A program made the position numbers and the translations under genes. 64,000 nt of DNA. Source: Terriglobia bacterium. Lineage in GTDB: Bacteria > Acidobacteriota > Terriglobia > JAJPHL01 > JAPKYU01. Location: NCBI GenBank assembly GCA_965223005.1, contig CBDCVK010000008.1, positions 180,389-244,388 of the forward strand. Reading direction: 5' to 3'. Shown here piece by piece: positions 1 to 36,005 of the stretch. Position 1 is the stretch's first letter, and each line of letters starts with the position of its first letter. The notes below the pieces were generated by a model. It saw nothing but the letters and a program-made list of their open reading frames with translations, was not told the origin of the DNA and searched no databases.

Positions 1-252
1 GTGTTTTACCGGGGACTAGGGCGGCCGCAAGGCATGACGTTCGACGCTCAGGGTAACCTCTACGTGGCTGCCTCCCTGGGTGGCCGCAAGGGAATTGTGC
101 GGATCGCACCCGACCAGCAAGCCCATCTGGCCGTTTCCGGCGCGGGTCTGGTAGGGGCGGCTTTCACTGCCGGCCGCTCTCTGATCCTTGCCAACACCAG
201 TTCCATCTTCCACCTGAATTGGGACGTCAGAGGGTTGCCGCTGCTCTCCTAA
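1..252 (+). CDS. 3' end of an SMP-30/gluconolactonase- or NHL-like beta-propeller protein (partial)
   Basis: PQGMTFDAQGNLYVA is a typical propeller blade motif; the ORF runs off the window edge. Confidence 0.6.
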   Translation: MFYRGLGRPQGMTFDAQGNLYVAASLGGRKGIVRIAPDQQAHLAVSGAGLVGAAFTAGRSLILANTSSIFHLNWDVRGLPLLS

Positions 253-375
253 TATCGTGACCGGTGATTCAGTTCCTCGGGAAGCTTCCGATCCTTGAGC
301 AACGCCGAGAATCACGCCGTGGATAAGACGAACGGGATCAACCGGCCACGGCACTAGGGCTGGACTGAGGTTCGG

Positions 376-1611
376 ATGAACGCAGAAATTATTGCCGTGG
401 GCTCAGAACTGTTGGGGCCGCACCGGCTAGACACCAATTCCCTGTTCATCACCAACCAGCTGAATCGCCTGGGCATCGAGGTTCGGCAGAAAACGGTGGT
501 GGGCGACGACGAAGCACAGATTGCGGCTGCCATGGGCGCCGCTCTCGAGCGCGCCGAGATCGTGGTGGTGATGGGCGGATTGGGACCCACCGCCGACGAC
601 CTCACTCGCGAAAGCGTGGTCCGCCTGCTGGGCAGGCGGCTGTCTCGTGACGCGCGCGTCGCCGAAGTGATCGAGAAGCGCTTCCGCACTCGCGGCTTCA
701 CTATGCCGGAGATCAACCTTCGCCAGGCCATGATCCTGGAAGGCGCCGAGATCCTGGAAAATCCAAGAGGCACCGCTCCCGGCCAGTGGATTCAGGAAGG
801 CGGCCGGACTCTGATGCTGCTGCCCGGCGTGCCTTCCGAAATGGAAGCCATGTTTGAGCGGCAGTGCCTGCCTCGACTGGAGAAGATCGCGCCCGGCCGG
901 CGGTTGCTCACCCGGGTGTTGAAAATCGCCGGCCTTTTTGAGTCGCAGGTAGACGAGCTGGCGGCGCCCATCTACCGCAAGTATGAGAACCCGACGACCA
1001 CCATCCTGGCTGCACCCGGGGAAATTCAGTTGCACCTGCGGGCCGCTGGGTCCGACGAAGCGGAGGCCCGCGGCGCCCTCAACGATTTGGCTTCCCGTCT
1101 GGAATTGGCTTTCGGCGACAACATCTTTTCCCAAGATGGCCAGTCGATGGAAGAAGTGGTTGGCATGTTCCTGACGATGAAAAGCAAGACGCTCGCGGTG
1201 GCGGAAAGCTGCACAGGCGGGTTGCTGGCGGAACGCATGACGCGCGTTCCGGGAAGTTCCCGTTATTTTCTGGGAGGGCTCGTAGCTTACCAGAACGAGG
1301 TCAAAACGCGCTGGCTGGAGGTGCCAGCCTCGGTGCTGGAATCCAACGGGGCCACCAGCGGAGAGGTGGCGCGCATCCTAGCCGAATCCGTGCGGCGGCG
1401 CTTTGGAGCCGACTTCGGACTCAGCATCACTGGAATCGCCGGGCCTTCCGGCGCTACCGAGGCCAAGCCGGTGGGACTGGTCTACCTGGCACTGGCGGAA
1501 GCCGGCCGCGCAGGCGAGGTCATCGAGAAGCACTATCCGGGCACGCGAGACCGCATCCGCCTTCAGGCCACCCAAACCGCCCTGGACATGCTCCGCCGCC
1601 GGATCAAATAG
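376..1611 (+). CDS. cinA: Competence/damage-inducible protein CinA (MoCF domain + PncC NMN deamidase)
   Basis: AEIIAVGSELL, GGLGPTADD, AESCTGG, GIAGPSG motifs. Confidence 0.95.
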   Translation: MNAEIIAVGSELLGPHRLDTNSLFITNQLNRLGIEVRQKTVVGDDEAQIAAAMGAALERAEIVVVMGGLGPTADDLTRESVVRLLGRRLSRDARVAEVIEKRFRTRGFTMPEINLRQAMILEGAEILENPRGTAPGQWIQEGGRTLMLLPGVPSEMEAMFERQCLPRLEKIAPGRRLLTRVLKIAGLFESQVDELAAPIYRKYENPTTTILAAPGEIQLHLRAAGSDEAEARGALNDLASRLELAFGDNIFSQDGQSMEEVVGMFLTMKSKTLAVAESCTGGLLAERMTRVPGSSRYFLGGLVAYQNEVKTRWLEVPASVLESNGATSGEVARILAESVRRRFGADFGLSITGIAGPSGATEAKPVGLVYLALAEAGRAGEVIEKHYPGTRDRIRLQATQTALDMLRRRIK

Positions 1612-1688
1612 CCAGTTTCCGGTGTCCGGCCACAGGTGCCAGGTTTTGTAAGGAATTGGCGTGAGACCTGCAAGCTGACCCCTTCCTT

Positions 1689-2240
1689 ATGCGGTTGTTC
1701 GTGGCCCTGGAGTTGGATGAGGCTGTCCGCTCGCGGATTACCGCCCTGCTGCGCCAACTGGAGCCGGCGGTTCGCCAAGTCAAGTGGGTGAAGCCGCAAT
1801 CGCTGCACCTGACGCTCAAGTTCATTGGCGAGCAACCGGAAGACAGATTGCCAGCCCTGGTCGAAGCGCTGGCGGGCGTGCCCGCGCCCGGGCCGCTGGA
1901 ACTCGGTTTCCGCGGGTTGGGCTGTTTTCCCAATGAGCGCCACCCCCGTGTCTTCTGGGTGGGCGTGCTGGCGCCGCCGGCCTTGGGCCAACTCGCCGCC
2001 GGGGTCGAGCGGGCCTTGGCGCCGCTGGGGATTGACCCCGAGCAGCGTCCATTCTCTCCTCACCTGACCCTGGGCCGGCTGAGGCAGGGCAGCCGTCTTC
2101 CAGTCTTGCCGCCGGAATGGGAAGTCCACCGCTCCGAGGATCTCGGCCGCTACACGGCAACGGAACTGTTCCTCTATCAGAGTCGGCTTTTTCCTCACGG
2201 TGCTGAATACGTCAAGCTGAAGCATTTCCCCTTGGAATAA
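1689..2240 (+). CDS. thpR: RNA 2',3'-cyclic phosphodiesterase (2H family)
   Basis: MRLFVAL start, two HxT motifs (LHLTLKF, PHLTLGR), usual neighbour of cinA. Confidence 0.93.
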   Translation: MRLFVALELDEAVRSRITALLRQLEPAVRQVKWVKPQSLHLTLKFIGEQPEDRLPALVEALAGVPAPGPLELGFRGLGCFPNERHPRVFWVGVLAPPALGQLAAGVERALAPLGIDPEQRPFSPHLTLGRLRQGSRLPVLPPEWEVHRSEDLGRYTATELFLYQSRLFPHGAEYVKLKHFPLE

Positions 2241-2426
2241 CCACTGGCCAATCTGTTTCTCGTTGCGGTGCCAACCCCGGAAGGATTTCCCCGCCCGGTG
2301 TTCCGCCAAGGCGTCCTACCGGCAAGACGTCCCGGAGGACACGCTTTGCTCTCCGACAGTTCACCGGAGAACCGTCCTGCCGCCTGCCGGGACCCGCCTG
2401 GTAGGCGCTTGCTCAATAGCCCAAAG

Positions 2427-2494
2427 GTACCAAGCAGAATGTAACTGTTCTCCTATTGGCTGCTTGCTGTCGCTGCGTTTAACTAGACACTGTT
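2427..2494 (+). promoter_or_regulatory. Conserved upstream element, copy 1 (paralog at 4476-4543)
   Basis: gtaccaagcaRaatgtaactgt..ctattggc..ttgctg..ttaactagRcactgtt-ATG is shared with the second copy. Confidence 0.6.
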
Positions 2495-2671
2495 ATGAAG
2501 GCAACAAAGACCCAAGCCATGGCGGCGCTGTTCTGTGCGGTTGTTGCTGCACGGAAGAGCCGCAGAAGTCTGCCGGAGTTCTTACGGATTCTCCCGTTGA
2601 GTCCGGAGATGAAATCTATGGCGCTGAAGAGCTATCGAGGCGTATTTGAATCAGCTGGATTGGAGCCATGA
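2495..2671 (+). CDS. Unannotated 58-aa small protein (MKATKTQAMAALFCAVVAARKSRRSLPEFLRILPLSPEMKSMALKSYRGVFESAGLEP)
   Basis: Paralog at 4544-4714 differs by many synonymous changes; stop overlaps the next start (ATGA at 2668-2671). Confidence 0.75.
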   Translation: MKATKTQAMAALFCAVVAARKSRRSLPEFLRILPLSPEMKSMALKSYRGVFESAGLEP

Positions 2672-4302
2672 GCGGCACGAAACAACCCAAAGTCCTCGTC
2701 ATTGACGATGACGAGCAGATGCTGACCATCGTCCGGAAAATACTGGAAGGTGAGGGCTTGGCCGTTGACGTGGCGCAGTCGGCCCGTGAAGCGTTGGACC
2801 GCTTGCCTGAAAATGGCTACAACGCCATCCTCTGCGACATGTTGATGCCGGGGATGTCGGGCGCAGAGTTCTACCAGCAGGTGAAAAAGGAATTCCCAGA
2901 GTACAAGCGCCGGATTGTGTTCCTGACGGGCGATATCGCCTCGGAAGCTACCTGGGAGTTTATTGAGCAAAGGCATTTGCCTTACGTTTCGAAGCCCTTC
3001 GGAGCTCGCGAGTTGCACCAGAAGCTGCGGGAGTTGGTCGGAGAGCCGGCTTCTGCAGCCAGCTCGCCCGAGAAGCCGAAGAACACCCGGCGGCATCGGC
3101 GGATTGCGATCAAGGCTGCCATTCGGGTGCGCAAGAAGAGATGGGCCACCGACGGCCCCGAGATTACCGTGGCCACCAACGTCAGTAAAGAAGGCGCTTA
3201 CTTCCTCAGCAACCGGCAATACCGGGTCGGCACCGAGGTGCTGGTTTCGTTTCCCTACACCGGCCCGCAGGATGCCGAGCAGGAAGGCTGCGTGGTGCGG
3301 GCGGACGAAGATGGGGAAGGCCGATGGGGTGTGGCCATCGCCCTGGGTCCTGCGGCCCTGGCCTTCCGCTCCGGACTGGCTGGCGGGCCCGAAGAGCGCC
3401 GGCGCCACCGCATCCTGGCCATGGCCGACCTGTCTGGCCAGAGGCCCCTTCCCCGCGCTGGCAATGAGAAAGAGGCCGACCTTGCTGACCTGGAACGGAC
3501 GGTGGAACGCGAGCGGGAAGAGGCTCGCCGCCTCGCCGAGCAGCTCACCGACGTGAACGCCAGCCACGAGCGTGTGGCTGCCCAGCGCGATCACCTGGCC
3601 GCCGAGGAGACGCGCCTCAACCTGCAGTTGCGTGAGCTCACGGCCGCCAAAGCCACGCTGGGTCAGGTGACCGAAGAGCTCAAGCAGCAGATGGAGACGC
3701 TGCAAAAGCAGCTGGCGGTCAGCGAAGGTTACCGCTTCCAGGCCACGCACGATTCTCTCACCGGGGTTTGGAACCGCGCAGCGATCCTGGACATTCTGGG
3801 CGGGGAACTGGAGCGCGCCAAGCGCGAGGGAATCCCTGTAGGGGTTGTGCTGGCCAACCTAGACCATTTCAAGGCTATCAACGACACATACGGGCATCTG
3901 GCCGGCGATGCGGTGTTACGGGAAACTGGCCGCAGAATGGCTTCCTCCGTACGGCTGTATGACTCGGTCGGCCGCTATGGAGGAGAAGAGTTCCTGATTG
4001 TCCTCCCAGACTGCGATGCCACCAGCACGCTGAACCAGGCCGAGAGAATTCGAGCCTGCCTCAGCAACGAACCCGTGCACACCCGGGAGGGTCAGATCTC
4101 CAGCACCATGAGTTTGGGGGTGGCCGTCGGAAGCGAGGAGGACGAGATGGAAACCCTCCTGCGCGCTGCCGATGCCGCGTTGTACCGGGCCAAGCGTGCA
4201 GGCCGCAACCGTGCCGAGGCGGCCACGGCTATGGAAGCCGCTGCGCCACATTTGCTTGCAAGTGAGGCCCCCCAGGGGGTGAGCAAGGATGGACAGGCCT
4301 GA
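2668..4302 (+). CDS. Diguanylate cyclase with REC-PilZ-coiled coil-GGDEF architecture
   Basis: REC (VLVIDDD, CDMLMPGMSG, KPF); PilZ (RRHRR..NVSKEG); RLYD I-site; GRYGGEEF. Confidence 0.9.
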   Translation: MSGTKQPKVLVIDDDEQMLTIVRKILEGEGLAVDVAQSAREALDRLPENGYNAILCDMLMPGMSGAEFYQQVKKEFPEYKRRIVFLTGDIASEATWEFIEQRHLPYVSKPFGARELHQKLRELVGEPASAASSPEKPKNTRRHRRIAIKAAIRVRKKRWATDGPEITVATNVSKEGAYFLSNRQYRVGTEVLVSFPYTGPQDAEQEGCVVRADEDGEGRWGVAIALGPAALAFRSGLAGGPEERRRHRILAMADLSGQRPLPRAGNEKEADLADLERTVEREREEARRLAEQLTDVNASHERVAAQRDHLAAEETRLNLQLRELTAAKATLGQVTEELKQQMETLQKQLAVSEGYRFQATHDSLTGVWNRAAILDILGGELERAKREGIPVGVVLANLDHFKAINDTYGHLAGDAVLRETGRRMASSVRLYDSVGRYGGEEFLIVLPDCDATSTLNQAERIRACLSNEPVHTREGQISSTMSLGVAVGSEEDEMETLLRAADAALYRAKRAGRNRAEAATAMEAAAPHLLASEAPQGVSKDGQA

Positions 4303-4475
4303 CTTCATGAAGACGCAATCCCATCTCGATCATGTTCTTTGCCGTGCCGGCACCCGCGAGCCTGGCCAAGCTGCGCCACCGATCCCCCGGTAGCGTAGCC
4401 CTGCTCGCATGGTGGAGACCCGCCACCAGCCAGCCATAATTCCCACCTGCTGGGCGCGCGCCCGCTAGTCCGAAA

Positions 4476-4543
4476 GTACCAAGCAAAATGTAACTGTGGG
4501 GCTATTGGCCATTTGCTGCGGCTCCGCTTAACTAGGCACTGTT
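4476..4543 (+). promoter_or_regulatory. Conserved upstream element, copy 2
   Basis: Aligns to 2427-2494 up to the ATG of the small ORF. Confidence 0.6.
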
Positions 4544-4714
4544 ATGGACAGCACAAGAACTCAAACGACCCAGACCATGGCGGCGCTGTTTTGCGCGATG
4601 GTTGCGGCACAGAAGACCCGCAGACCCCTCCCGGAGTTTCTGCGGATTCTCCCGGTGAGGTGCGCGATCAAGTCCATGGCACTGAAATCTACGCCAATGA
4701 GGTTTACGTTATGA
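4544..4714 (+). CDS. Unannotated 56-aa small protein (MDSTRTQTTQTMAALFCAMVAAQKTRRPLPEFLRILPVRCAIKSMALKSTPMRFTL)
   Basis: Paralog of 2495-2671; ATGA overlap at 4711-4714 with the GGDEF gene. Confidence 0.75.
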   Translation: MDSTRTQTTQTMAALFCAMVAAQKTRRPLPEFLRILPVRCAIKSMALKSTPMRFTL

Positions 4715-6117
4715 GCCATGCGAACCCAATGTCGAACTTGAGTACCCTGCCGGCCACCGAGGCCGGTCTGGTTGAAGGAGCTACTATGAGCCTAGTCACT
4801 ACTGACGTGGTGTCCCCTGCGAACCCTGCCTCATTTCCACAGGAGGCTTTCGCTCAGTTTGCCCCCCGGCCCCAGGGGGCCGAAGGCGAGCCATCGGAGT
4901 CGGATCAGCATTTGTCTCCTCTGGATGCCATTGCTGGCCTGTCGGCGATTCAAGACAGGTTGCAGCAACTGGAACGGAGAGATTGGCGGGTCTGGTCAGC
5001 GGCCCTCGCGGTGCTGCTGCTGATGGGGACCGTGCTTGCACTCTCCTCAGCGCCCTTCTGGACACAGTTTTCCATCGTGCTGCTTTTCAGCGGCTATGCC
5101 GTAGCCCAGCAGCTGGTGAGCAGACGAATCCGGCATGAGCTGTCCCGGCAGGTTGATTCGATGTTGCTGTCCCAGCAGATTGACTCGGTCTTCAACCTGA
5201 AATTCCGGACCGAGGATTCTCACCAGCTGGCGATGCTGGATCCCGTCACCGGACTGTACAACCGCAGCTTCCTCGAGGAGCACCTATCTACCGAGCTGGC
5301 CCGATCCCAGAGGGAGGAAAATTCACTCGCCGTGGTGGCGCTGCATCTGAAGGACTTCGCGCAGATCATCGACTCCTACGGACGCTCGGCCGGCGATCTG
5401 GTGCTGAAGCATTTTGGCGCACAACTCAAGAAAGCGATCCGAAACTCGGATTTTGCCGCGCGCACAGGCCAGGATGAGTTCATGGTGTTGTTCCCCGAAG
5501 GCAGACCCGAGCAGGTGCCGGTCACGCTTCCCCGCATGGCGGATCTGGAAGTGGACTTTCGTGCGGAGAAGATTCCAGTCAGCTTTGTTTCTGGGTGGAC
5601 CGCCTATCAACCTGGCGACTCCCCCGGCCAGCTCTTGGATCGTGCCGAGCAGGCGGTTCTTGCCGACAAGCCAACCGGGCCGGCCGAGCCGGAGACCCTG
5701 GTGGCCCTAAGCGCAACCGCTCCTGCTGAAGAAGAGGGAGTCGCTGAGGCGCCTGGTATGCAGGCTGGCCCACAACCTGAACCAACTGCTGATACTGAGC
5801 AAGCCGAGCAGACGGTTTTGGCCTACAAGCCACCCAGCGAGGCCGAGCCGGAGGTCCTGGTGGGCCTAAACGCAGTTTCTTCCGCTGCCAAAGATGAAGT
5901 CGCTGGGACACCTGGCATGCAGGCTGACCCACAACCTGAACCAGCTGCTGACGCTGGTCAAAGGGTACGCCGAGCTAGTGCCAGATCAGCTAAGCCGGGC
6001 CGCTCCGCTACGCGGCGACGTAGAGTAGTACCTGCGACCGCTCCGGTAGGTGAATTCGCTGCTCTGGCGGCTGCTGCTCTAAAGCCGGGGCCCAGCGATG
6101 AACCTCAAAGTGCTTGA
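4711..6117 (+). CDS. Membrane-anchored degenerate GGDEF protein with an acidic/Pro-rich repeat tail
   Basis: Two hydrophobic segments; DPVTGLYNR; active site reads TGQDEF; start moved to ATG 4711 (ATGA coupling). Confidence 0.8.
   Translation: MSHANPMSNLSTLPATEAGLVEGATMSLVTTDVVSPANPASFPQEAFAQFAPRPQGAEGEPSESDQHLSPLDAIAGLSAIQDRLQQLERRDWRVWSAALAVLLLMGTVLALSSAPFWTQFSIVLLFSGYAVAQQLVSRRIRHELSRQVDSMLLSQQIDSVFNLKFRTEDSHQLAMLDPVTGLYNRSFLEEHLSTELARSQREENSLAVVALHLKDFAQIIDSYGRSAGDLVLKHFGAQLKKAIRNSDFAARTGQDEFMVLFPEGRPEQVPVTLPRMADLEVDFRAEKIPVSFVSGWTAYQPGDSPGQLLDRAEQAVLADKPTGPAEPETLVALSATAPAEEEGVAEAPGMQAGPQPEPTADTEQAEQTVLAYKPPSEAEPEVLVGLNAVSSAAKDEVAGTPGMQADPQPEPAADAGQRVRRASARSAKPGRSATRRRRVVPATAPVGEFAALAAAALKPGPSDEPQSA
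5644..5960 (+). repeat. Two imperfect in-frame tandem copies of a 159-bp (53-aa) unit
   Basis: AEQAVLADKP..PGMQAGPQPEP at 5644 and AEQTVLAYKP..PGMQADPQPEP at 5803. Confidence 0.85.
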
Positions 6118-6245
6118 CCTGAACGGTCGGCCGGACGAGATGGAGCCGGAGCCGGGAGAGGCTGTAGAGGCAGCCTCATAGGCGGTTGAAAAAAGTCCCC
6201 ACGCCTCATAAAGCCACCCTCGCCGGCGCCGCGTGGGACGCCCGG

Positions 6246-7172
6246 CTAGTGGAACGCCCCGGATTCCACCCGGTCCCAACCCAGCTTGTTGAGAAGCTGG
6301 GTCAGCCGTCCCTGCACCCAGGCCTGAGGCCCCATCAAGTCGGCCAGCTCGCCGTAGACTCGTGCGGCTTCATCCACCATTCCGTTCTCTTCGTATAGGA
6401 ACGCAAGTAGGAAGCGGGGCCCGTTGTCGGACGGATTGTCCTGCAGGAGTTGGTGCAGGCTGTCCTCGGTAGCACGGACCTGCTCGGCCTTCTCGTTGGG
6501 TAGCACCTGAAAGAAGGAGACAGCTTCCACCAGCGTGTCTTCACCTTCACGAGCAGTCACCCGCCACCCAATATTTCTTGCCCCACTTCAGCGCCTGGGT
6601 CTCGGCCGGATACCGCAGCTCGGTCGCCGCAACCGTCTGGCGCCACAAAATCCGCTCTTCCCGATTCATCAGTTTGACCTCGTAGACCTCGGCGTTGTCC
6701 ACCGGAGCCCAGAGGAAACGGGCTCCAGCGTGGCGACCCGTGTGCGGGGTGGAGAACGCAGCAATAGGTTGGCACCGCGCAGGCGCATCATGCCCGATTG
6801 CATCCTGCTCGCGCTGGCCAGAACCAAGTTGCTGGGCAGGCGGCAGGAGGGTACCTTGCGCTCGGCGTTGAGGTTGCCCTTCAGCACCTTCAAGGCCTCG
6901 GCGTCAAACTGCACCTCGGCGCCGGCCGGAATCTTGGCGGCCCGGGACTCGGGACAGTACAAGAAGGCGGCCTCGGAATTCTTGCCAGTCAGGATACGGT
7001 CGCCGGGGGCAATCAGGTCCGCCGTGCGGGCCGGAACGGGGGTCTTCTGGCCGGACCGGAGAATCCTCACGTTGCCCGAGACCATGGAGAGCAGGCCGAC
7101 TGGGGCCGCGCCCTGCGCGGCCACTGCCAGTAACAGCATTGCGATTACGGTCCAATGCATCTTACGAGTCAT
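6246..7172 (-). CDS. Secreted protein with a FecR-like N-terminus and DUF928/TPR-like C-terminus, interrupted by two compensating 1-nt indels
   Basis: Signal peptide; SGNVRI..GDRILTG; repairing ggg 6720-6722 and ccc 6567-6569 restores PRFLWAPVDNAEVYEVKL..KYWWRVTARE and joins ORFs 6669-7172 and 6246-6560, which share a frame. Confidence 0.7.
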
Positions 7173-9085
7173 GCGTCACCACCTTTTAACTCCAGGATTT
7201 TATATACCGCCATGGGTTCGGCCACCCCCTTCAACTTGGCGTGCCCCGCCAGTTCCGCCACCACGTCCTGGCGGACCTCCTCGTAGGTGGCCTCGCTGAC
7301 CAGAAGCTGGGAATGGAACGTCTTGTTTTCTCCTTCGATGCGCGAGGCCACATTCACCGTGTCCCCGATAGCCGTGTATTCCATCTTCTCCGGCGCACCG
7401 ATGTTGCCCACCACGGCGTCGCCGGTGTGCAGTCCGATGCCAACAACGAGCTCCCTCAGGCCGCGTTCGGTGCGGCTCCGGTTGTATTCCTGGTTGCGCT
7501 TCACCATGCCCAAGGCGCTGCGCACAGCTCGCCGGGCGTCATCAGGATGGGGGACGGGCGCGCCAAACAGGGCCATGATCCCGTCCCCAATGAATTTGTT
7601 GATCATGCCGCCATGCGCCTTGATTTCCGCGGTCATCTCCGCAAACAACTCGTTTAGCTCCTCCACCACCAGACGGGGGTCGCGGCCCTGACAGTAGCCG
7701 GTGTAGTTGCGGATGTCCGAGAACATCACCGTGACCCGCTGGTAGCTGCCGCCCAGGGGGATTTCACCCTGTTCCATCACTTCGCGCGCTACCTCGCTGG
7801 AGACGTAGCGGCCGAAGACCTCCTGCAACAGACGGCGCTGGCGGTCTTCGGTGCGCGAATAGGCGCCGTAAGAAGCCAGCCCGCTCACTGCGACGGCCAG
7901 CACCGGCGGAACCACCGGCAACACCAGGTCGTATTGCAAGCTGACCATCGTCGCCACCAGGTAAACGGCGACGGCGCCCAACAGGGTCAGCGGCGCCCAG
8001 GGGAACCCGATCCGGAAAATGCACAAGCTGGCCAGCGCGGCCCCCGCCAGCACCAGCGCCAGGGTCGCCGCCGGCGAAGCCTCCCGCAGGAAGCGCTTCT
8101 CCAGCAAGGTGCCCAGGGCGTTGGCGTGAATCTCCACCCCGGGGGTGAGACTCTGTCCGCCGCCAGCCAGGTAGAACGGTGAGGGCCGCCGATCGGTGGG
8201 ATCCAGCGTGCCAACCAACAACGTCTTGCCATCAAACCACTGCTTCAGTTTCTCCGTCTGGCCCTGCCTCGCGGCAGCCAGCACGTCGGCCATGGATACG
8301 GCCGGGAAGGTGCCGCCCGGCCCCCAGTAGTGGATCAGAAGAAAGCCGGAAGAATCGAGCGGCACTGCGTGGTCGCCAAAGCGGATTGAGCTGTTCTGCT
8401 CATCGAGGACTCCACGTTCCTGCCCAAGAACCTGAGAGGCGAGCCGGGTGGCAAACGATTCCGGGGCATCCGGACCTTGGCTCTGTAATTCCTGCCGGCG
8501 AATGAAGCCGTCGGTATCGAAGGTGACGTTGGCAAAGCCCATCGCTCCCTGAGCGCCGGCGAACATGTAGAGGGGGAGCGATTCCGGAGGCGGGTGCAAG
8601 GTGTCATAGGCCAGCACGATGGGCATCGAGGCAGAAGCTTCCATAAAGGCCGCGGCCAGTTCGCGATCCAGGTCCGGAGCCCAAGGCTCCACTGAAATGG
8701 CAAAGAACGCGTCCAGGCCAAGGGCGCGCGCCCCGCCCGCGGCAGCCGCGCGAAACAATGCCGCATAGTGCGGATGCCAGAAAATTTTCGGCTCCGGTAG
8801 AGCGTCCTCGGTCTTCTCGTCTATAGTCACCAGCACGATGTTCGGCGGCGGCGGCTGTTTCCCGCGCAACACAAAGCGCAGATCGTAGGTTTTCAGTTCT
8901 AGCAACTGCAGGGGGGAAGTCGCGCTCAGAGCCCAGGCCAGAGCCGCCGACGCGATGGCCGTGCCCGTTGCCAGGGCCAGCGTCCTCCACCGGCGGTCGC
9001 GAGCTTTCTTGCCCGGCTTCGGCGGGATAGGCGGCCCGCCGGCCTCCGTCCCCTCCCGCAGGGATGTTGATGCAGGTGTGGCCAA
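7169..9085 (-). CDS. CHASE2-domain class III adenylate/guanylate cyclase
   Basis: IVLVTIDE, PGVEIHA, three TM helices, FSDIRNYT, KFIGDGIM, GDTVNVASR. Confidence 0.93.
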   Translation of the reverse strand: MATPASTSLREGTEAGGPPIPPKPGKKARDRRWRTLALATGTAIASAALAWALSATSPLQLLELKTYDLRFVLRGKQPPPPNIVLVTIDEKTEDALPEPKIFWHPHYAALFRAAAAGGARALGLDAFFAISVEPWAPDLDRELAAAFMEASASMPIVLAYDTLHPPPESLPLYMFAGAQGAMGFANVTFDTDGFIRRQELQSQGPDAPESFATRLASQVLGQERGVLDEQNSSIRFGDHAVPLDSSGFLLIHYWGPGGTFPAVSMADVLAAARQGQTEKLKQWFDGKTLLVGTLDPTDRRPSPFYLAGGGQSLTPGVEIHANALGTLLEKRFLREASPAATLALVLAGAALASLCIFRIGFPWAPLTLLGAVAVYLVATMVSLQYDLVLPVVPPVLAVAVSGLASYGAYSRTEDRQRRLLQEVFGRYVSSEVAREVMEQGEIPLGGSYQRVTVMFSDIRNYTGYCQGRDPRLVVEELNELFAEMTAEIKAHGGMINKFIGDGIMALFGAPVPHPDDARRAVRSALGMVKRNQEYNRSRTERGLRELVVGIGLHTGDAVVGNIGAPEKMEYTAIGDTVNVASRIEGENKTFHSQLLVSEATYEEVRQDVVAELAGHAKLKGVAEPMAVYKILELKGGDA

Positions 9086-9099
9086 CGTGCCCCCTCTGA

Positions 9100-9129
9100 T
9101 TGACCTGGCCCTAAAGCGAATTATACACT
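9100..9129 (+). promoter_or_regulatory. Putative sigma70 promoter for the caspase-TPR/TonB operon
   Basis: TTGACC-18 nt-TACACT in the short divergent gap. Confidence 0.4.
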
Positions 9130-9197
9130 AGTTGGAGGCTCTGCCCGGCCCACGCGGCGGTGATTTGGTTGCGGGGCGGTCGGGACAGGACTACTCA

Positions 9198-11297
9198 GTG
9201 CGCCATTCTCGACTGGTTCTGCTCCTTCTGTTGCTGACCTGGACTGCGCCGCTCTTCTTGCTGGCGCAGGAGGAGCAGCCGAATTTTTATGCAGTCATCA
9301 TTGGAGTTTCCGAGTTCGAATACCTCCCCAAGGAGGAGTGGCTGGATTTCGCCGACGACGATGCTCGGGATTTTTACAAGGTCATTACCAGCCCCCGCGG
9401 CCGGGCCTTTCCACCGGAGAACGTCTTTCTGTTGACGGACCAGAAGGCCAGCTTCTACGCCATCCGAAAGAAGCTGGGCAGCACCCTGGCCAAAAAGGTC
9501 AAGCGGGGCGACACCGTCTACATCTTCATTGCTACGCACGGCATGGTGGAGAAAGAAGTCTCCCGGGAGGGATATCTGCTGGCGCATGACTCGGACCGGG
9601 AAGATCTCTACATCAGCGCGCTGGCGATGAAAGACCTGGGCAATATCATGCAGAGTCGGCTGCGGAAGGCAAGACGCGTCTTCCTGTTTGCCGACGCCTG
9701 CCGGGCGGGAAAACTAGGTCAGGTACAGGGCAGGATCAATCGCTACATTGAAGACGTCAGCAAGAGCGAAGGAGAAACTCTGGGCTTGCTGGCCAGCCGT
9801 CCCAACGAATTTTCCCGCGAAGGGCCGCAGTTTGGTGGTGGCCACGGCGTCTTCACCTACTATCTGCTCAAAGGCATGATGGGGGCAGCTGACGTCGATG
9901 GCGACGAGACGGTGAACGCGACCGAGCTGGTGGATTATCTAGATGAGAAGGTCGAAGAGGCCACCGATAGGCAACAGCACGTTCGGGAATTTGGAACATT
10001 TGAAGCCGAAACTCCCATTACCTTCATTGACAAACCGGGTCCGGAAGACCTGCAATTGGGCCAGTCGCCCCGCCCCAGAGGGACCGAAATCGCCTCGGTG
10101 CAGGTCATCTCGCCAGAAAGTAGCGAAGTTCGCATCGCCTTGCGGCAGGCTCTGCGGGAAGGGCGCTTGCTGGCCCCGTCCGAGGACAACGCCTGGGACC
10201 TGTATCAACGTTACACCCAACTCTCTGTTCCCGAATCTGAGAAAGAAGACGTGCAGGATGACTTGTTTATCGCGCTGGCCACCGCAGGAGACAGAGTGCT
10301 GTCGGCCTACCGGCGTGGCGATCAAGTCATCCGGCTGGATGCGGCGAAGTATAACGAAGGGGCGCAGCTGTACGACCGCGCTCTGGAGCTTGACCCGGAG
10401 GATTTCACGCTTCCTCCCAAGGCCAAATTCATGGCCGGGCGCGCCTTGGTGGAGAGTGGCCGCTACAGAGAGGGAATTTCGGTGCTGCGTGCGGCCATCC
10501 AACTGGACCCGGAAGCGGCGCATTCCTACAACGCGCTCGGCATCGCACATATGAAGCTGGGACAGTGGGATGATGCTCTGGCCAACTTCCTTGCAGCTTC
10601 GGAGCGCGCCGAGAAGTGGGTCTATCCTCATTACAACACAGCCCTGGTTCACATCGCTCGGCGGGGTTGTGGTGACGCGGAACGGGAATTTCACAAAGGA
10701 ATCGAGCTGGGGACCGAGCTGGGCCTGAAGTACTCCTATTTGCATTACAATCTGGGGATTCTGTATCTGGAACAGGGCCGTTATAAGGGAGCCGAGCAGC
10801 AGTTCCGGCGCGCCATCGAAATGGTGCCGGATGACGCGCTGAGCTACTACAACCTGGGACTGCTGTTCGAGCAGCGAGGCGAGATGCGCCAGGCTGAGGC
10901 GTACTTCCGCACGTCAGCAGACCTGGATGCCCGGCTGGTGGAGCCGCGCTTGAAGCTGGCGGAGATTTACCGCAAGCAACGCCGCCGGGAGTTGCAGGAG
11001 TCCATGCTGCGTCAGGCCGTGGCTGGCGATCCCCGCAGCGTGCGGGCCCTGGAGGCGCTCGGCCAATTCCTCCTGGAAGGCAAGAGGCTGGAGGAGGCCG
11101 AGCAGGTATTCATGCAGATGATGGTGAACAATCCGGCCGCGGCGGCGTCCTACTCCTGGCTGGGCGATGTGCACGCCGCCCAGCGAAACTTCCAGCAAGC
11201 CGCCGAAGATTACCGCCAGGGCATGGCCCGCACCCGCGATCCGAAACTCCTCCGTGAGTTGCAAAGAAAATTGCGCTCCGTGGAGAGGAAGAAATGA
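9198..11297 (+). CDS. Secreted caspase-like (peptidase C14) protein with C-terminal TPR repeats
   Basis: Signal peptide; YAVIIGVSEF; His/Cys dyad in ATHG and DACRAG; HGVFTYYLL; many TPRs; GTG 9198 preferred as start. Confidence 0.9.
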   Translation: MRHSRLVLLLLLLTWTAPLFLLAQEEQPNFYAVIIGVSEFEYLPKEEWLDFADDDARDFYKVITSPRGRAFPPENVFLLTDQKASFYAIRKKLGSTLAKKVKRGDTVYIFIATHGMVEKEVSREGYLLAHDSDREDLYISALAMKDLGNIMQSRLRKARRVFLFADACRAGKLGQVQGRINRYIEDVSKSEGETLGLLASRPNEFSREGPQFGGGHGVFTYYLLKGMMGAADVDGDETVNATELVDYLDEKVEEATDRQQHVREFGTFEAETPITFIDKPGPEDLQLGQSPRPRGTEIASVQVISPESSEVRIALRQALREGRLLAPSEDNAWDLYQRYTQLSVPESEKEDVQDDLFIALATAGDRVLSAYRRGDQVIRLDAAKYNEGAQLYDRALELDPEDFTLPPKAKFMAGRALVESGRYREGISVLRAAIQLDPEAAHSYNALGIAHMKLGQWDDALANFLAASERAEKWVYPHYNTALVHIARRGCGDAEREFHKGIELGTELGLKYSYLHYNLGILYLEQGRYKGAEQQFRRAIEMVPDDALSYYNLGLLFEQRGEMRQAEAYFRTSADLDARLVEPRLKLAEIYRKQRRRELQESMLRQAVAGDPRSVRALEALGQFLLEGKRLEEAEQVFMQMMVNNPAAAASYSWLGDVHAAQRNFQQAAEDYRQGMARTRDPKLLRELQRKLRSVERKK

Positions 11298-34907: not shown

Positions 34908-35711
34908 TCAGTACAGGACCTGGTCCTCGCCCTTCTGAGCGATGAGGTTATCGAAGCGAGCCACGATTTTGTCGCGCCGCTTCATCAGGGCTTTGACTTC
35001 CGATGCGTTCAGGTGAGGCTGCGTCTTCTCCCGAACCTCGGCCGCGCTCAACTGCTGCAGCTTCTCGAGCAACTGCCGGTCGCACTTAACTAAACCCTTG
35101 GGGCTCCGCAGCTCGTGATGCCAGCGGAAGGCGCGCGTAAAGTCAATCATCCAGACCTTCCAGTCCTCAGTGATCAGCAGGTTTCCCAGGTTGCGGTCGG
35201 TGTCATGGACAAGCTGGGAGAACACCCGCACCCTGTGGATCTGTCGGTTCCAGGCTTCCGGGTCGGGCGGCTGTAGCTTTTTCAGAAAGCGATCCCGCTC
35301 GTGCCACTTAAAGGTGACCCACCAGCTCAGCGCGCCGGTCTTGCCAGCCCATTTACGCGCCACTGTCACCGGCATCATGTGCGTCAGGCCGAGTAGCCCG
35401 GCTAGCTCGTAGGCGGCAATGTTGAAGTGGTAGGAGTCGCGGAAGTTTGGCTCAGCGTGACCGGCGGGCCTGCGTTCGTCAATGGACTGGAAGGCGGCGT
35501 CGTGCGTCAGCGTGCCGTCCGTCAGCGTCAGCCGCCATGGAGCGGTGACGCCTCGGCTGAGCTGTCGGCTGCGGATCACTTTGGCCGTCAGCAGGAATTG
35601 TTGTGTTCGCTCTGGTGTAAGGTTCGGCTCTTCCGCAGCAACCAGGAAGCCGGCGGCGACCAGGCCGGCCAGCGCGGCCCCGAGCAACGCTCCTGAAGGA
35701 CGGCACGACAT
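34908..35711 (-). CDS. Secreted atypical kinase-like (PI3K/CotH/Fam20-like fold) hypothetical protein
   Basis: Signal peptide; DTDRNLGNLLI and WMIDF resemble catalytic-loop and metal-binding motifs. Confidence 0.6.
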   Translation of the reverse strand: MSCRPSGALLGAALAGLVAAGFLVAAEEPNLTPERTQQFLLTAKVIRSRQLSRGVTAPWRLTLTDGTLTHDAAFQSIDERRPAGHAEPNFRDSYHFNIAAYELAGLLGLTHMMPVTVARKWAGKTGALSWWVTFKWHERDRFLKKLQPPDPEAWNRQIHRVRVFSQLVHDTDRNLGNLLITEDWKVWMIDFTRAFRWHHELRSPKGLVKCDRQLLEKLQQLSAAEVREKTQPHLNASEVKALMKRRDKIVARFDNLIAQKGEDQVLY

Positions 35712-36005
35712 CGAGCTCTCCCTGCTGCGCAGGTCTGTCTGCTGGGATGAACTTTACTCGCCTTTGGCGTCGTCCGCTGAACCGATTCCGTGTCGCCGGT
35801 CGCTCCCCCGTGGCCGTCAGCAGGAATTGTTGTGTTCGCTCTGGTGTAAGGTTCGGCTCTTCCGCAGCAACCAGGAAGCCGGCGGCGACCAGGCCGGCCA
35901 GCGCGGCCCCGAGCAACGCTCCTGAAGGACGGCACGACATCGAGCTCTCCCTGCTGCGCAGGTCTGTCTGCTGGGATGAACTTTACTCGCCTTTGGCGTC
36001 GTCCG
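35582..36005. repeat. 195-bp direct repeat (35582-35776, 35811-36005) separated by a 34-nt insert
   Basis: The copies look identical at offset 229; the ORF track shows the same N-terminus twice. Confidence 0.93.

Follow-up and report, generated by a model that had tools for sequence, protein, structure and literature searches.

We analysed a 64,000-nucleotide stretch of the genome of a Terriglobia bacterium (contig CBDCVK010000008.1, positions 180,389 to 244,388; hereafter the window), in which a duplicated cassette, made up of a conserved non-coding block and a short open reading frame (sORF), stands immediately before each of two genes for GGDEF-domain proteins. The window lies on contig C8 of an assembly referred to here as G000 (3.24 Mb, 10 contigs), and the whole assembly was searched by BLAST and with sequence patterns. 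Both cassette copies and their genes are on the plus strand. Copy A begins with a block at 2393..2494, conserved non-coding DNA with 74% aligned identity to its counterpart in copy B, and continues with sORF A at 2495..2671, which encodes a basic protein of 58 amino acids (isoelectric point (pI) 10.3) with three predicted helices. The gene that follows, at 2668..4302, encodes a 544-residue protein with receiver (REC), PilZ and GGDEF domains (Pfam GGDEF, E = 2.9e-45; Response_reg, 1e-22; PilZ, 1.8e-06). Copy B consists of a block at 4442..4543 and of sORF B at 4544..4714 (56 amino acids, pI 11.4), and is followed at 4711..6117 by the gene for a second GGDEF protein of 468 amino acids (Pfam GGDEF, 5.4e-31), the N-terminal region of which is hydrophobic and the C-terminal tail of which carries repeats. 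An earlier, sequence-only reading of this DNA had called both sORFs and had described one module ahead of two unrelated GGDEF genes; both ORFs are present, and the two genes do differ, the product of one combining REC, PilZ and GGDEF domains and that of the other having a hydrophobic N-terminal stretch besides its GGDEF domain. That reading had also seen that the TGA of each sORF lies within an ATGA and overlaps the ATG of the next gene, which is the case at 2668-2671 and at 4711-4714. At both places the sORF stop overlaps the next start, as in coupled upstream ORFs.

The two regions can be aligned over approximately 235 nt (2393-2628 against 4442-4686), with 74-78% identity. Because the alignment begins at about 2393 and 4442, the conserved non-coding block is approximately 100 nt long, rather than the 70 nt or so first estimated. 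In the list of open reading frames that accompanied the earlier reading, the frame of the second GGDEF gene begins further upstream, at a TTG (4513), and the suspicion that this extension was wrong is probably justified: orthologues in a sister species begin at an ATG matching 4711, and the stretch 4544-4710 is selected in the sORF frame but not in the frame of the GGDEF extension. The ATG at 4711, which has a GAGG 8 nt upstream, is therefore the most likely start of this gene on the sequence evidence. The description of the sORFs as unannotated needs qualification, as the first of them does appear in public gene calls, where it is a 50-amino-acid protein starting from an internal methionine; it is unnamed there. 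Three members of the family (P0007, P0047 and P0048) lack this internal methionine, which is why we place the sORF start at the upstream ATG, whose position is fixed by the block.

Several comparisons strongly support the view that the sORF is a genuine protein-coding gene under purifying selection, as the sequence-only reading had proposed. Over 37 core codons, copies A and B differ by 13.2 synonymous and 11.8 non-synonymous changes, giving proportions of synonymous (pS) and non-synonymous (pN) differences of 0.48 and 0.14, so that the excess of synonymous differences noticed earlier holds up. Among the G000 paralogues, pN/pS was 0.28-0.35 in the ORF frame, compared with 1.2-1.75 in the two other frames. 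Eleven pairs of orthologues or paralogues from three species gave a summed pN/pS of 0.29, compared with 1.22 and 1.74 in the shifted frames; these pairs share sequences and are therefore not independent. The ratio of non-synonymous to synonymous substitution rates (dN/dS) in the sORF frame ranged from 0.06 to 0.28 between orthologues and paralogues. It was 0.06 between sORF A and its orthologue G006a from another genus (pS 0.73, which is near saturation; pN 0.15), 0.09 between sORF A and the orthologue G003a, and 0.21-0.26 between sORF B and two G003 orthologues. Variable columns were distributed over the three codon positions as 15, 15 and 31, and we tallied 18 copies with an intact frame across G000, G001, G002, G003 and G006. 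The only listed read variant within sORF A, a C>T change at 2581, is synonymous (TTC>TTT), and the listed variants in sORF B represent a cross-mapped paralogue.

The proteins of the family are 50-60 amino acids long and share the core MAALFCAxVAAxKxRRSLPEFLRILPVSPxxKSMAL, with conservation spanning nearly all residues from 9 to 44. All are basic, with pI values of 9.7-11.7 and 8-10 lysines and arginines among 52-58 residues, and their tails are of recurring subtypes, which correspond to the gene downstream. AlphaFold2 predicted helices at residues 3-22, 26-32 and 37-54 of sORF A (predicted local distance difference test (pLDDT) score 73.8) and at residues 3-21, 26-31 and 38-51 of a member from a second family of genomes, f9 (pLDDT 80.3), so a basic three-helix fold is common to two independent models. 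Five positions (L12, F13, A15, L26 and P34) are near-invariant across the superfamily; read as a hydrophobic core plus a loop proline, they suggest a fold rather than a linear motif. The statement that the family was not a recognised one stands. Eleven of 12 small proteins had no Pfam family at E ≤ 1, and the remaining one, L002, had two unrelated weak matches (E 0.14 and 0.22); at the same threshold none of the 12 matched PilZ, the GGDEF I-site or other Pfam domains that bind cyclic di-GMP (c-di-GMP). NCBIfam returned no family for eight small proteins, and a PDB sequence search returned just two chance rows (E 0.22 and 1.1).

We also considered, and set aside, a relationship to MshEN (GSPII), a c-di-GMP receptor domain. 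With the first model only, Foldseek gave weak rows to PilF GSPII-B (E 2.5-9.4, probability at most 0.2), the best of which, to a c-di-GMP-bound structure, had an E value of 2.5 and 31% identity over 39 columns; this row did not recur with the second model, and Pfam gave no match to the domain. The helix-loop-helix of the sORF model is of comparable size to that of MshEN, whose GSPII fold has four helices. The 24-residue motif of the MshEN study, RLGxx(L/V/I)(L/V/I)xxG(L/V/I)(L/V/I)xxxxLxxxLxxQ (PMC5013675), matched 0 of 43 family members, whether in its strict form, in the authors' relaxed form or in the relaxed form without the small residues.

A profile search of a 5.8-billion-protein collection identified 42 unnamed small homologues of 40-75 amino acids (E ≤ 0.01), and none of seven clusters that were looked up carried a name. 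An exhaustive profile search of 1.84 billion cluster representatives gave 20 matches at E ≤ 0.001, of which 13 were proteins of 43-70 amino acids and one was a decayed copy of 55 amino acids. Three were fusion or frameshift products, each seen once, that also came up in the search of longer proteins described below. The others were a predicted 66-residue protein in which the match covers residues 30-65, and two proteins with repeats (188 and 845 amino acids). The sequence-only reading had raised the possibility that the sORF might match the N terminus of a known longer protein. Among 8000 scored candidates in a search of longer proteins there were 4 matches, all of them single-member fusions or frameshifted reads (in one, a deletion joins the core of the sORF to the middle of the receiver domain), so the sORF is not the N terminus of such a protein. 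Among 201 Terriglobia genomes searched at E ≤ 1e-4, homologues were found in 11, which are G000 itself, four of the six others of family f1 and six of the 14 of family f9; none was found in the other 180. The f9 homologues that we inspected are stand-alone small genes without the block, three of which have Shine-Dalgarno (SD)-like sequences, as judged by reading. A search of genome contigs returned four loci in two Terriglobia metagenome-assembled genomes, which are the same genomes as G002 and G006. In metagenome contigs from JGI, the protein pattern gave 194 matches, none of which was confirmed, and the block DNA pattern gave none. There was no usable match in the ESM Atlas, and full-text literature searches for signature peptides of the family and for small proteins, diguanylate cyclases and Acidobacteria yielded nothing on it.

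The block occurs nine times in G000, in every case upstream of a gene on the same strand; these genes encode three GGDEF proteins, three PilZ proteins, a CpaE-like ATPase, a sigma-54 activator and an FHA protein. Block and sORF recur together at 6-9 G000 loci and in four related genomes, which exceeds chance. At C8a (copy A), the order is block, sORF and REC-PilZ-GGDEF gene, and at C8b (copy B) and its 99.3% identical twin C2a it is block, sORF and GGDEF gene. At C5, the sORF is followed, after a gap of 14 nt, by a gene for a receiver plus ParA/CbiA (CpaE-like) ATPase, and at C3 a relic of the start of a REC gene lies between the sORF and a PilZ gene. The sORF is frameshifted by a 17-nt deletion at C9, where the same REC-start relic as at C3 precedes the sigma-54 activator gene, and it is cut after approximately 20 codons at C2b, ahead of a PilZ gene. 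At C10 the block stands directly before a PilZ gene, and at C2c it stands before the gene for the FHA-domain protein, whose ATG is the one used by the sORF at the other copies. In the sister species, the block is present roughly ten times in G001 and roughly nine times in G003. The pattern AATGTAAC-N7-CTATTGG, with up to two mismatches, had 10 matches in G000, nine of them inside blocks, as well as 15 in G001 and 13 in G003, compared with 0-2 for a reversed control pattern. The extra loci in the sister species include FHA-protein genes at four places, where the long gene begins at the fixed ATG of the block, and a PilZ gene at another. At L075 a receiver-only protein lies behind an sORF remnant of five codons, and at L072 the sORF before a GGDEF paralogue has been deleted internally in frame, with the long gene beginning at the block ATG. 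Two sister-species blocks are broken by insertion sequence (IS) elements.

The block is a more general unit than the sORF, as it stands directly before genes without any sORF. The best explanation is a cassette that undergoes duplication and is built of two layers: the block, and, in about half of the copies, the sORF as first cistron. In G000, a second locus (C2:254722-253434) is 99.3% identical over 1289 nt to positions 4439-5727 of the window, a segment that takes in block B together with sORF B and the greater part of the GGDEF gene. The identity begins exactly at the 5' edge of the block, which suggests a recent duplication or gene conversion bounded there. Immediately beyond the twin locus come a further copy of the block and the FHA gene. 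The IS-interrupted blocks are at L068 (G001:C4:832780-835000) and L070 (74000-76300), and an IS3-like transposase pair lies behind the L068 block.

By our tally, the sORF is decayed, truncated, fused or deleted in 7 of 25 cassette copies. Frameshifted, truncated or fused copies, of a kind that the sequence-only reading had named as evidence against its interpretation, do occur at paralogous loci (C9, C2b, G003d, G003e, L072 and L075), whereas the intact orthologous loci are strongly constrained. Because approximately a quarter of the copies have decayed, the sORF is not needed at every locus. These numbers fit a partly redundant product acting in trans, and also fit dispensability of the sORF at those loci. 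Two joined forms are of note. At L056 (G003:C2:1137900-1141700, minus strand), an sORF core without a block is joined in frame by a 1-nt indel to a 219-residue frame that looked cyclic-nucleotide-binding-like by eye, a relic showing that pieces of the cassette land elsewhere. In P0043, a metagenomic protein of 540 amino acids, the sORF core, ending at ...KSMAL, continues in frame into the receiver of the REC-PilZ-GGDEF protein from approximately residue 44 onwards; it is either a deletion variant or an assembly artefact.

The layout of the block is regular. A GC-rich imperfect palindrome is followed by AAAGTACC, N6, AAAATGTAAC, N7, CTATTGG, N19, TTAACTAG, N8 and ATG. Counted from AATGTAAC, 18 of 27 rows have their first start codon between +56 and +58, 15 of these at +57 precisely, and there is no SD sequence ahead of the sORF ATG in the block copies. 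As the ATG is fixed 8 nt after TTAACTAG and an SD sequence is lacking, the mRNA would be leaderless or nearly so, and the geometry of the block suggests a shared promoter/operator that yields such mRNAs. In this respect the block resembles the leaderless genes described in an earlier study, which have a TANNNT box approximately 10-12 bp upstream of the start codon (PMC3160421): the sORF has no SD sequence, the A/T-rich TTAACTAG ends 8 nt before the ATG and the distance is fixed in 18 of 27 rows. It differs in that the box is TTAACT/TAACTA and lies a few nucleotides further upstream than the reported mode. Candidate hexamers, TTGGCY-17-TTAACT, were read by eye. They may form a weak promoter that needs a factor to occupy the upstream boxes, with AAAGTACC and AAAATGTAAC as putative activator or repressor sites and with transcription beginning a few nucleotides before the ATG. 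The block of approximately 100 nt would then serve c-di-GMP, pilus and signalling genes as a common promoter and regulator-binding region.

Other promoter classes were compared with the block and set aside. The sigma-54 consensus is TGGCAC-N5-TTGC, with the GG and GC elements 12 nt apart. In the block, as judged by reading, a GC comes 8 or 11 nt after TTGGC and never 12, and the stretch behind TTGGC is not conserved among the copies. Readings of the block as a sigma-28 promoter or as a promoter for an extracytoplasmic function (ECF) sigma factor have the wrong spacing relative to the respective consensus sequences, again as judged by reading.

ATGA overlaps are retained beyond the window: the REC-PilZ-GGDEF gene has one in G000, G001, G003 and G006, and the gene of the second GGDEF type has one in G000 as well as in G003. 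The only SD-like sequence at the REC-PilZ-GGDEF gene is a GGAG 2 nt before its ATG, which is why this gene is probably translated by coupling to sORF A; by reading, nothing SD-like precedes the enzyme ATG in the G006 orthologue. Because the sORF stop overlaps the enzyme start, terminating ribosomes may reinitiate on the enzyme gene. The overlap is absent at C5, with its 14-nt gap, and at G006b, where the gap is 100 nt. Genes behind intact sORFs encode two types of GGDEF protein, the CpaE-like ATPase, PilZ proteins (C3 and L095 of G006) and HEAT repeats, so that the neighbours of the sORF copies are broader than GGDEF and include relics before the sigma-54 activator gene. The sequence-only reading had proposed that the small protein may partner c-di-GMP enzymes; the range of neighbours goes beyond such enzymes.

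We consider it about an even bet (probability roughly 0.5), judging from these sequence features, that the cassette is a portable promoter/operator block with a translationally coupled small protein that acts in trans. Ribosomes that load on the leaderless sORF would reinitiate on the enzyme gene, so that peptide and enzyme are made together, and the peptide would act in trans, serving this signalling regulon as an accessory or regulatory subunit of small size. The paralogues may be partly redundant, and their subtype-specific tails may tune specificity. A more specific version, which we regard as quite unlikely, is that the peptide is a dedicated shared subunit of the local c-di-GMP module. 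It would be held by translational coupling in fixed proportion to the downstream cyclase, PilZ receptor or CpaE-like ATPase; its tail would bind that partner, and its invariant core, possibly as a dimer, would bind c-di-GMP or would dock these proteins onto one common partner. Unrelated c-di-GMP components, co-transcribed from the portable leaderless promoter cassette, would in this way be wired into one circuit. Co-folding of sORF A with the full REC-PilZ-GGDEF protein, for which the partner alignment had 4 rows, scored 0.00 in two runs and has no bearing either way.

Several observations weigh against a portable promoter with a coupled, trans-acting protein. The f9 homologues are not adjacent to c-di-GMP genes, so the family may have been recruited to such genes only in the lineage of the window. 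The sORF is dispensable at some loci: a 17-nt deletion shifts its frame at C9, C2b has a truncated copy and G003e a decayed one, the core is fused in frame at G003d, an internal deletion has removed part of it at L072, and five codons are left at L075. The paralogues are not independent samples because of the recent gene conversion (99.3% over 1289 nt). Fold searches gave no lead, as Foldseek against the PDB returned nothing at E ≤ 0.001 for either model and a wide VIA-align search reached a best Z of 6.1, with generic helical rows. For the promoter, a scan of 2250-4800 for sigma-70 sites (TTGACA, 16-18 nt, TATAAT, at least 9 of 12 matches, with A2 and T6) found a single site at 4413-4440, 5' of block B, and none within either block; the candidate hexamers score under this strict threshold, and the candidate -10 element, TTAACT, lacks the usual A at position 2. 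RNA-library material is confined to one metatranscriptome run with four short contigs, one of which spans 4611-4778; these contigs are uninformative on starts and possibly represent DNA carry-over. That run is the one RNA library (share 0.11) among the sequencing runs, 21 of the 23 listed, that contain part of the window. One of its contigs covers 4386-4532 at 94.6% identity, carries unlike sequence ahead of that stretch and is probably a relative's copy. Contig ends inside repeats carry no information in this comparison, and uncovered parts mean nothing.

Two rival readings appear largely refuted. One holds that the block is a structured, riboswitch-like 5' leader, sensing c-di-GMP for example, with the sORF region within its expression platform. 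It would account for a conserved element repeated before GGDEF and PilZ genes, as is seen with c-di-GMP riboswitches, and a multi-copy riboswitch coupled to a small protein family is known from Clostridioides difficile (PMC13724677). However, an Rfam search with cmscan of window positions 1-10000 at E ≤ 1 gave two matches, neither overlapping a block, and no covariance-model match to a c-di-GMP-I or c-di-GMP-II riboswitch in either block. The RNAalifold consensus on 14 block copies was only -0.67 and -0.89 kcal/mol for the two strands, with no notable helices; single copies had folding z-scores of -0.15 (A), +1.46 (B), +1.06 and +0.35; copies A and B fold differently; and the variable spacers of the block show no compensatory pattern. 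We regard this reading as very improbable and largely refuted. In many copies, the GC-rich palindrome at the block's 5' edge could form a hairpin (-4 to -17 kcal/mol); its register varies between copies, and RNAalifold gave 0.0 on the 5' part of 22 copies. The other reading, that the sORF is a non-functional passenger whose apparent conservation reflects recent spread of the cassette and gene conversion, could draw on the two copies that are 99.3% identical over 1289 nt and on the several copies that are visibly decaying. Against it stand the comparison across genera (pS 0.73 against pN 0.15, dN/dS 0.06), the confinement of the synonymous excess to the sORF frame and the homologues without a cassette in the second family. 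From these sequence comparisons the passenger reading appears largely refuted, and we give it hardly any weight.

Two further readings carry more weight. If the sORF encoded a cis-acting leader or arrest peptide, its translation, perhaps with a stall at RILPVSP, would set the flow of ribosomes downstream, and the released peptide would have no function. The ATGA overlap at both GGDEF genes, kept across genera, is what such a peptide would show, as are the poor or missing SD sequence at the REC-PilZ-GGDEF start and the lack of an SD sequence at the sORF itself, whose ATG keeps a constant distance from the block. The conserved core, at approximately 36 residues, may have roughly the length of the ribosomal exit tunnel. 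The locus is also like known coupled upstream ORFs and leader genes in that a short ORF lies directly before a larger gene, with an ATGA at both GGDEF genes and a weak downstream SD at the REC-PilZ-GGDEF gene. One study (PMC4833913) proposed, for Acidobacteria among others, that leader genes lying close to structural genes enhance translation through reinitiation. Typical leader peptides, however, are not conserved as proteins, whereas here dN/dS is 0.06-0.28, nearly every residue from 9 to 44 is conserved and two models predict a helical fold. Intact copies occur uncoupled and not adjacent to the next gene, at C5 (14-nt gap) and at G006b (100 nt before a HEAT-repeat gene); the distant f9 homologues stand alone, several with their own SD-like sequences; the arginine of RILP is not retained in the f9 branch; and the L072 GGDEF paralogue manages without the sORF. 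On balance we consider a leader peptide possible but unlikely. The basic three-helix protein might instead be a DNA-binding autoregulator that acts on the boxes of its own block and thereby governs every gene driven by a block, whether or not an sORF is present. It is basic (pI 9.7-11.7, 8-10 lysines and arginines of 52-58 residues), its three short helices recall many small DNA binders, the block precedes 12 of the 13 full-length core copies examined in the genus of the window (the exception being G003d, in which the core is fused), and blocks before genes without an sORF would require a factor acting in trans. But no helix-turn-helix (HTH) or ribbon-helix-helix (RHH) family was matched in Pfam at E ≤ 1, no DNA-binding fold was prominent in the fold searches (Foldseek at E ≤ 0.001; VIA-align best Z 6.1, generic), the f9 homologues, G006c and L095 have no block, and the first helix reads as alanine-rich and hydrophobic, unlike a typical recognition helix. 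We consider an autoregulator attractive but improbable.

A parallel in concept is the CD1980.2 family of C. difficile, which comprises seven near-identical small proteins, each behind a class I c-di-GMP riboswitch; the proteins are membrane-associated and control sporulation (PMC13724677). Common to both cases are multi-copy small proteins behind a shared regulatory element, a c-di-GMP network and apparent redundancy. They differ in that the element there is a riboswitch RNA, whereas the block, read as a DNA-level element, shows neither RNA structure nor an Rfam match, and in that the proteins described here appear to be basic, soluble-looking helices encoded before c-di-GMP enzymes and receptors; this comparison is one of descriptions, not of sequences. 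The cassette represents a new small-protein family and the growth of a regulon by cassette duplication in a poorly studied phylum. Small proteins that accompany signalling enzymes are difficult to detect, and only a few of them are understood; the present one is a clear example under strong selection, from soil Acidobacteriota that are largely uncultured, and gene order links it to c-di-GMP cyclases and receptors. It also documents regulon rewiring, in which a compact unit of promoter and first cistron was copied before unrelated genes, with relics that are still legible. If the peptide does modulate or link c-di-GMP proteins, it would be a new type of accessory factor in a heavily studied second-messenger system; if it is merely a coupling device, it would be an unusually conserved one. 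Annotation corrections are due for the start of the second GGDEF gene and for both small genes.

Further features lie in and around these genes. The C-terminal tail of the second GGDEF protein is encoded in part by tandem 159-nt units at 5644-5802 and 5803-5961, which are 79% identical and together (5644-5961) encode two 53-residue repeats rich in proline, glutamate and alanine. The neighbouring genes on the minus strand, at 6246-7172 and 7169-9085, resemble further signalling components; one of them encodes a 638-residue membrane protein whose C-terminal part looks nucleotide-cyclase-like by eye only. A relative of the ORF at 6669-7172 sits after the PilZ gene at block copy C2b. Upstream of copy A, a weak match to the Twister-sister ribozyme at 1923-2017 on the minus strand, within the ORF at 1689-2240, scored 24 bits against a gathering threshold of 34 (E 0.14) and is probably due to chance. 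Elsewhere in the window, an exact 195-nt direct duplication (35582-35776 and 35811-36005) comprises the 5' end, approximately 43 codons plus upstream sequence, of a minus-strand gene at 34908-35711, and yields a second, truncated start 229 nt away.

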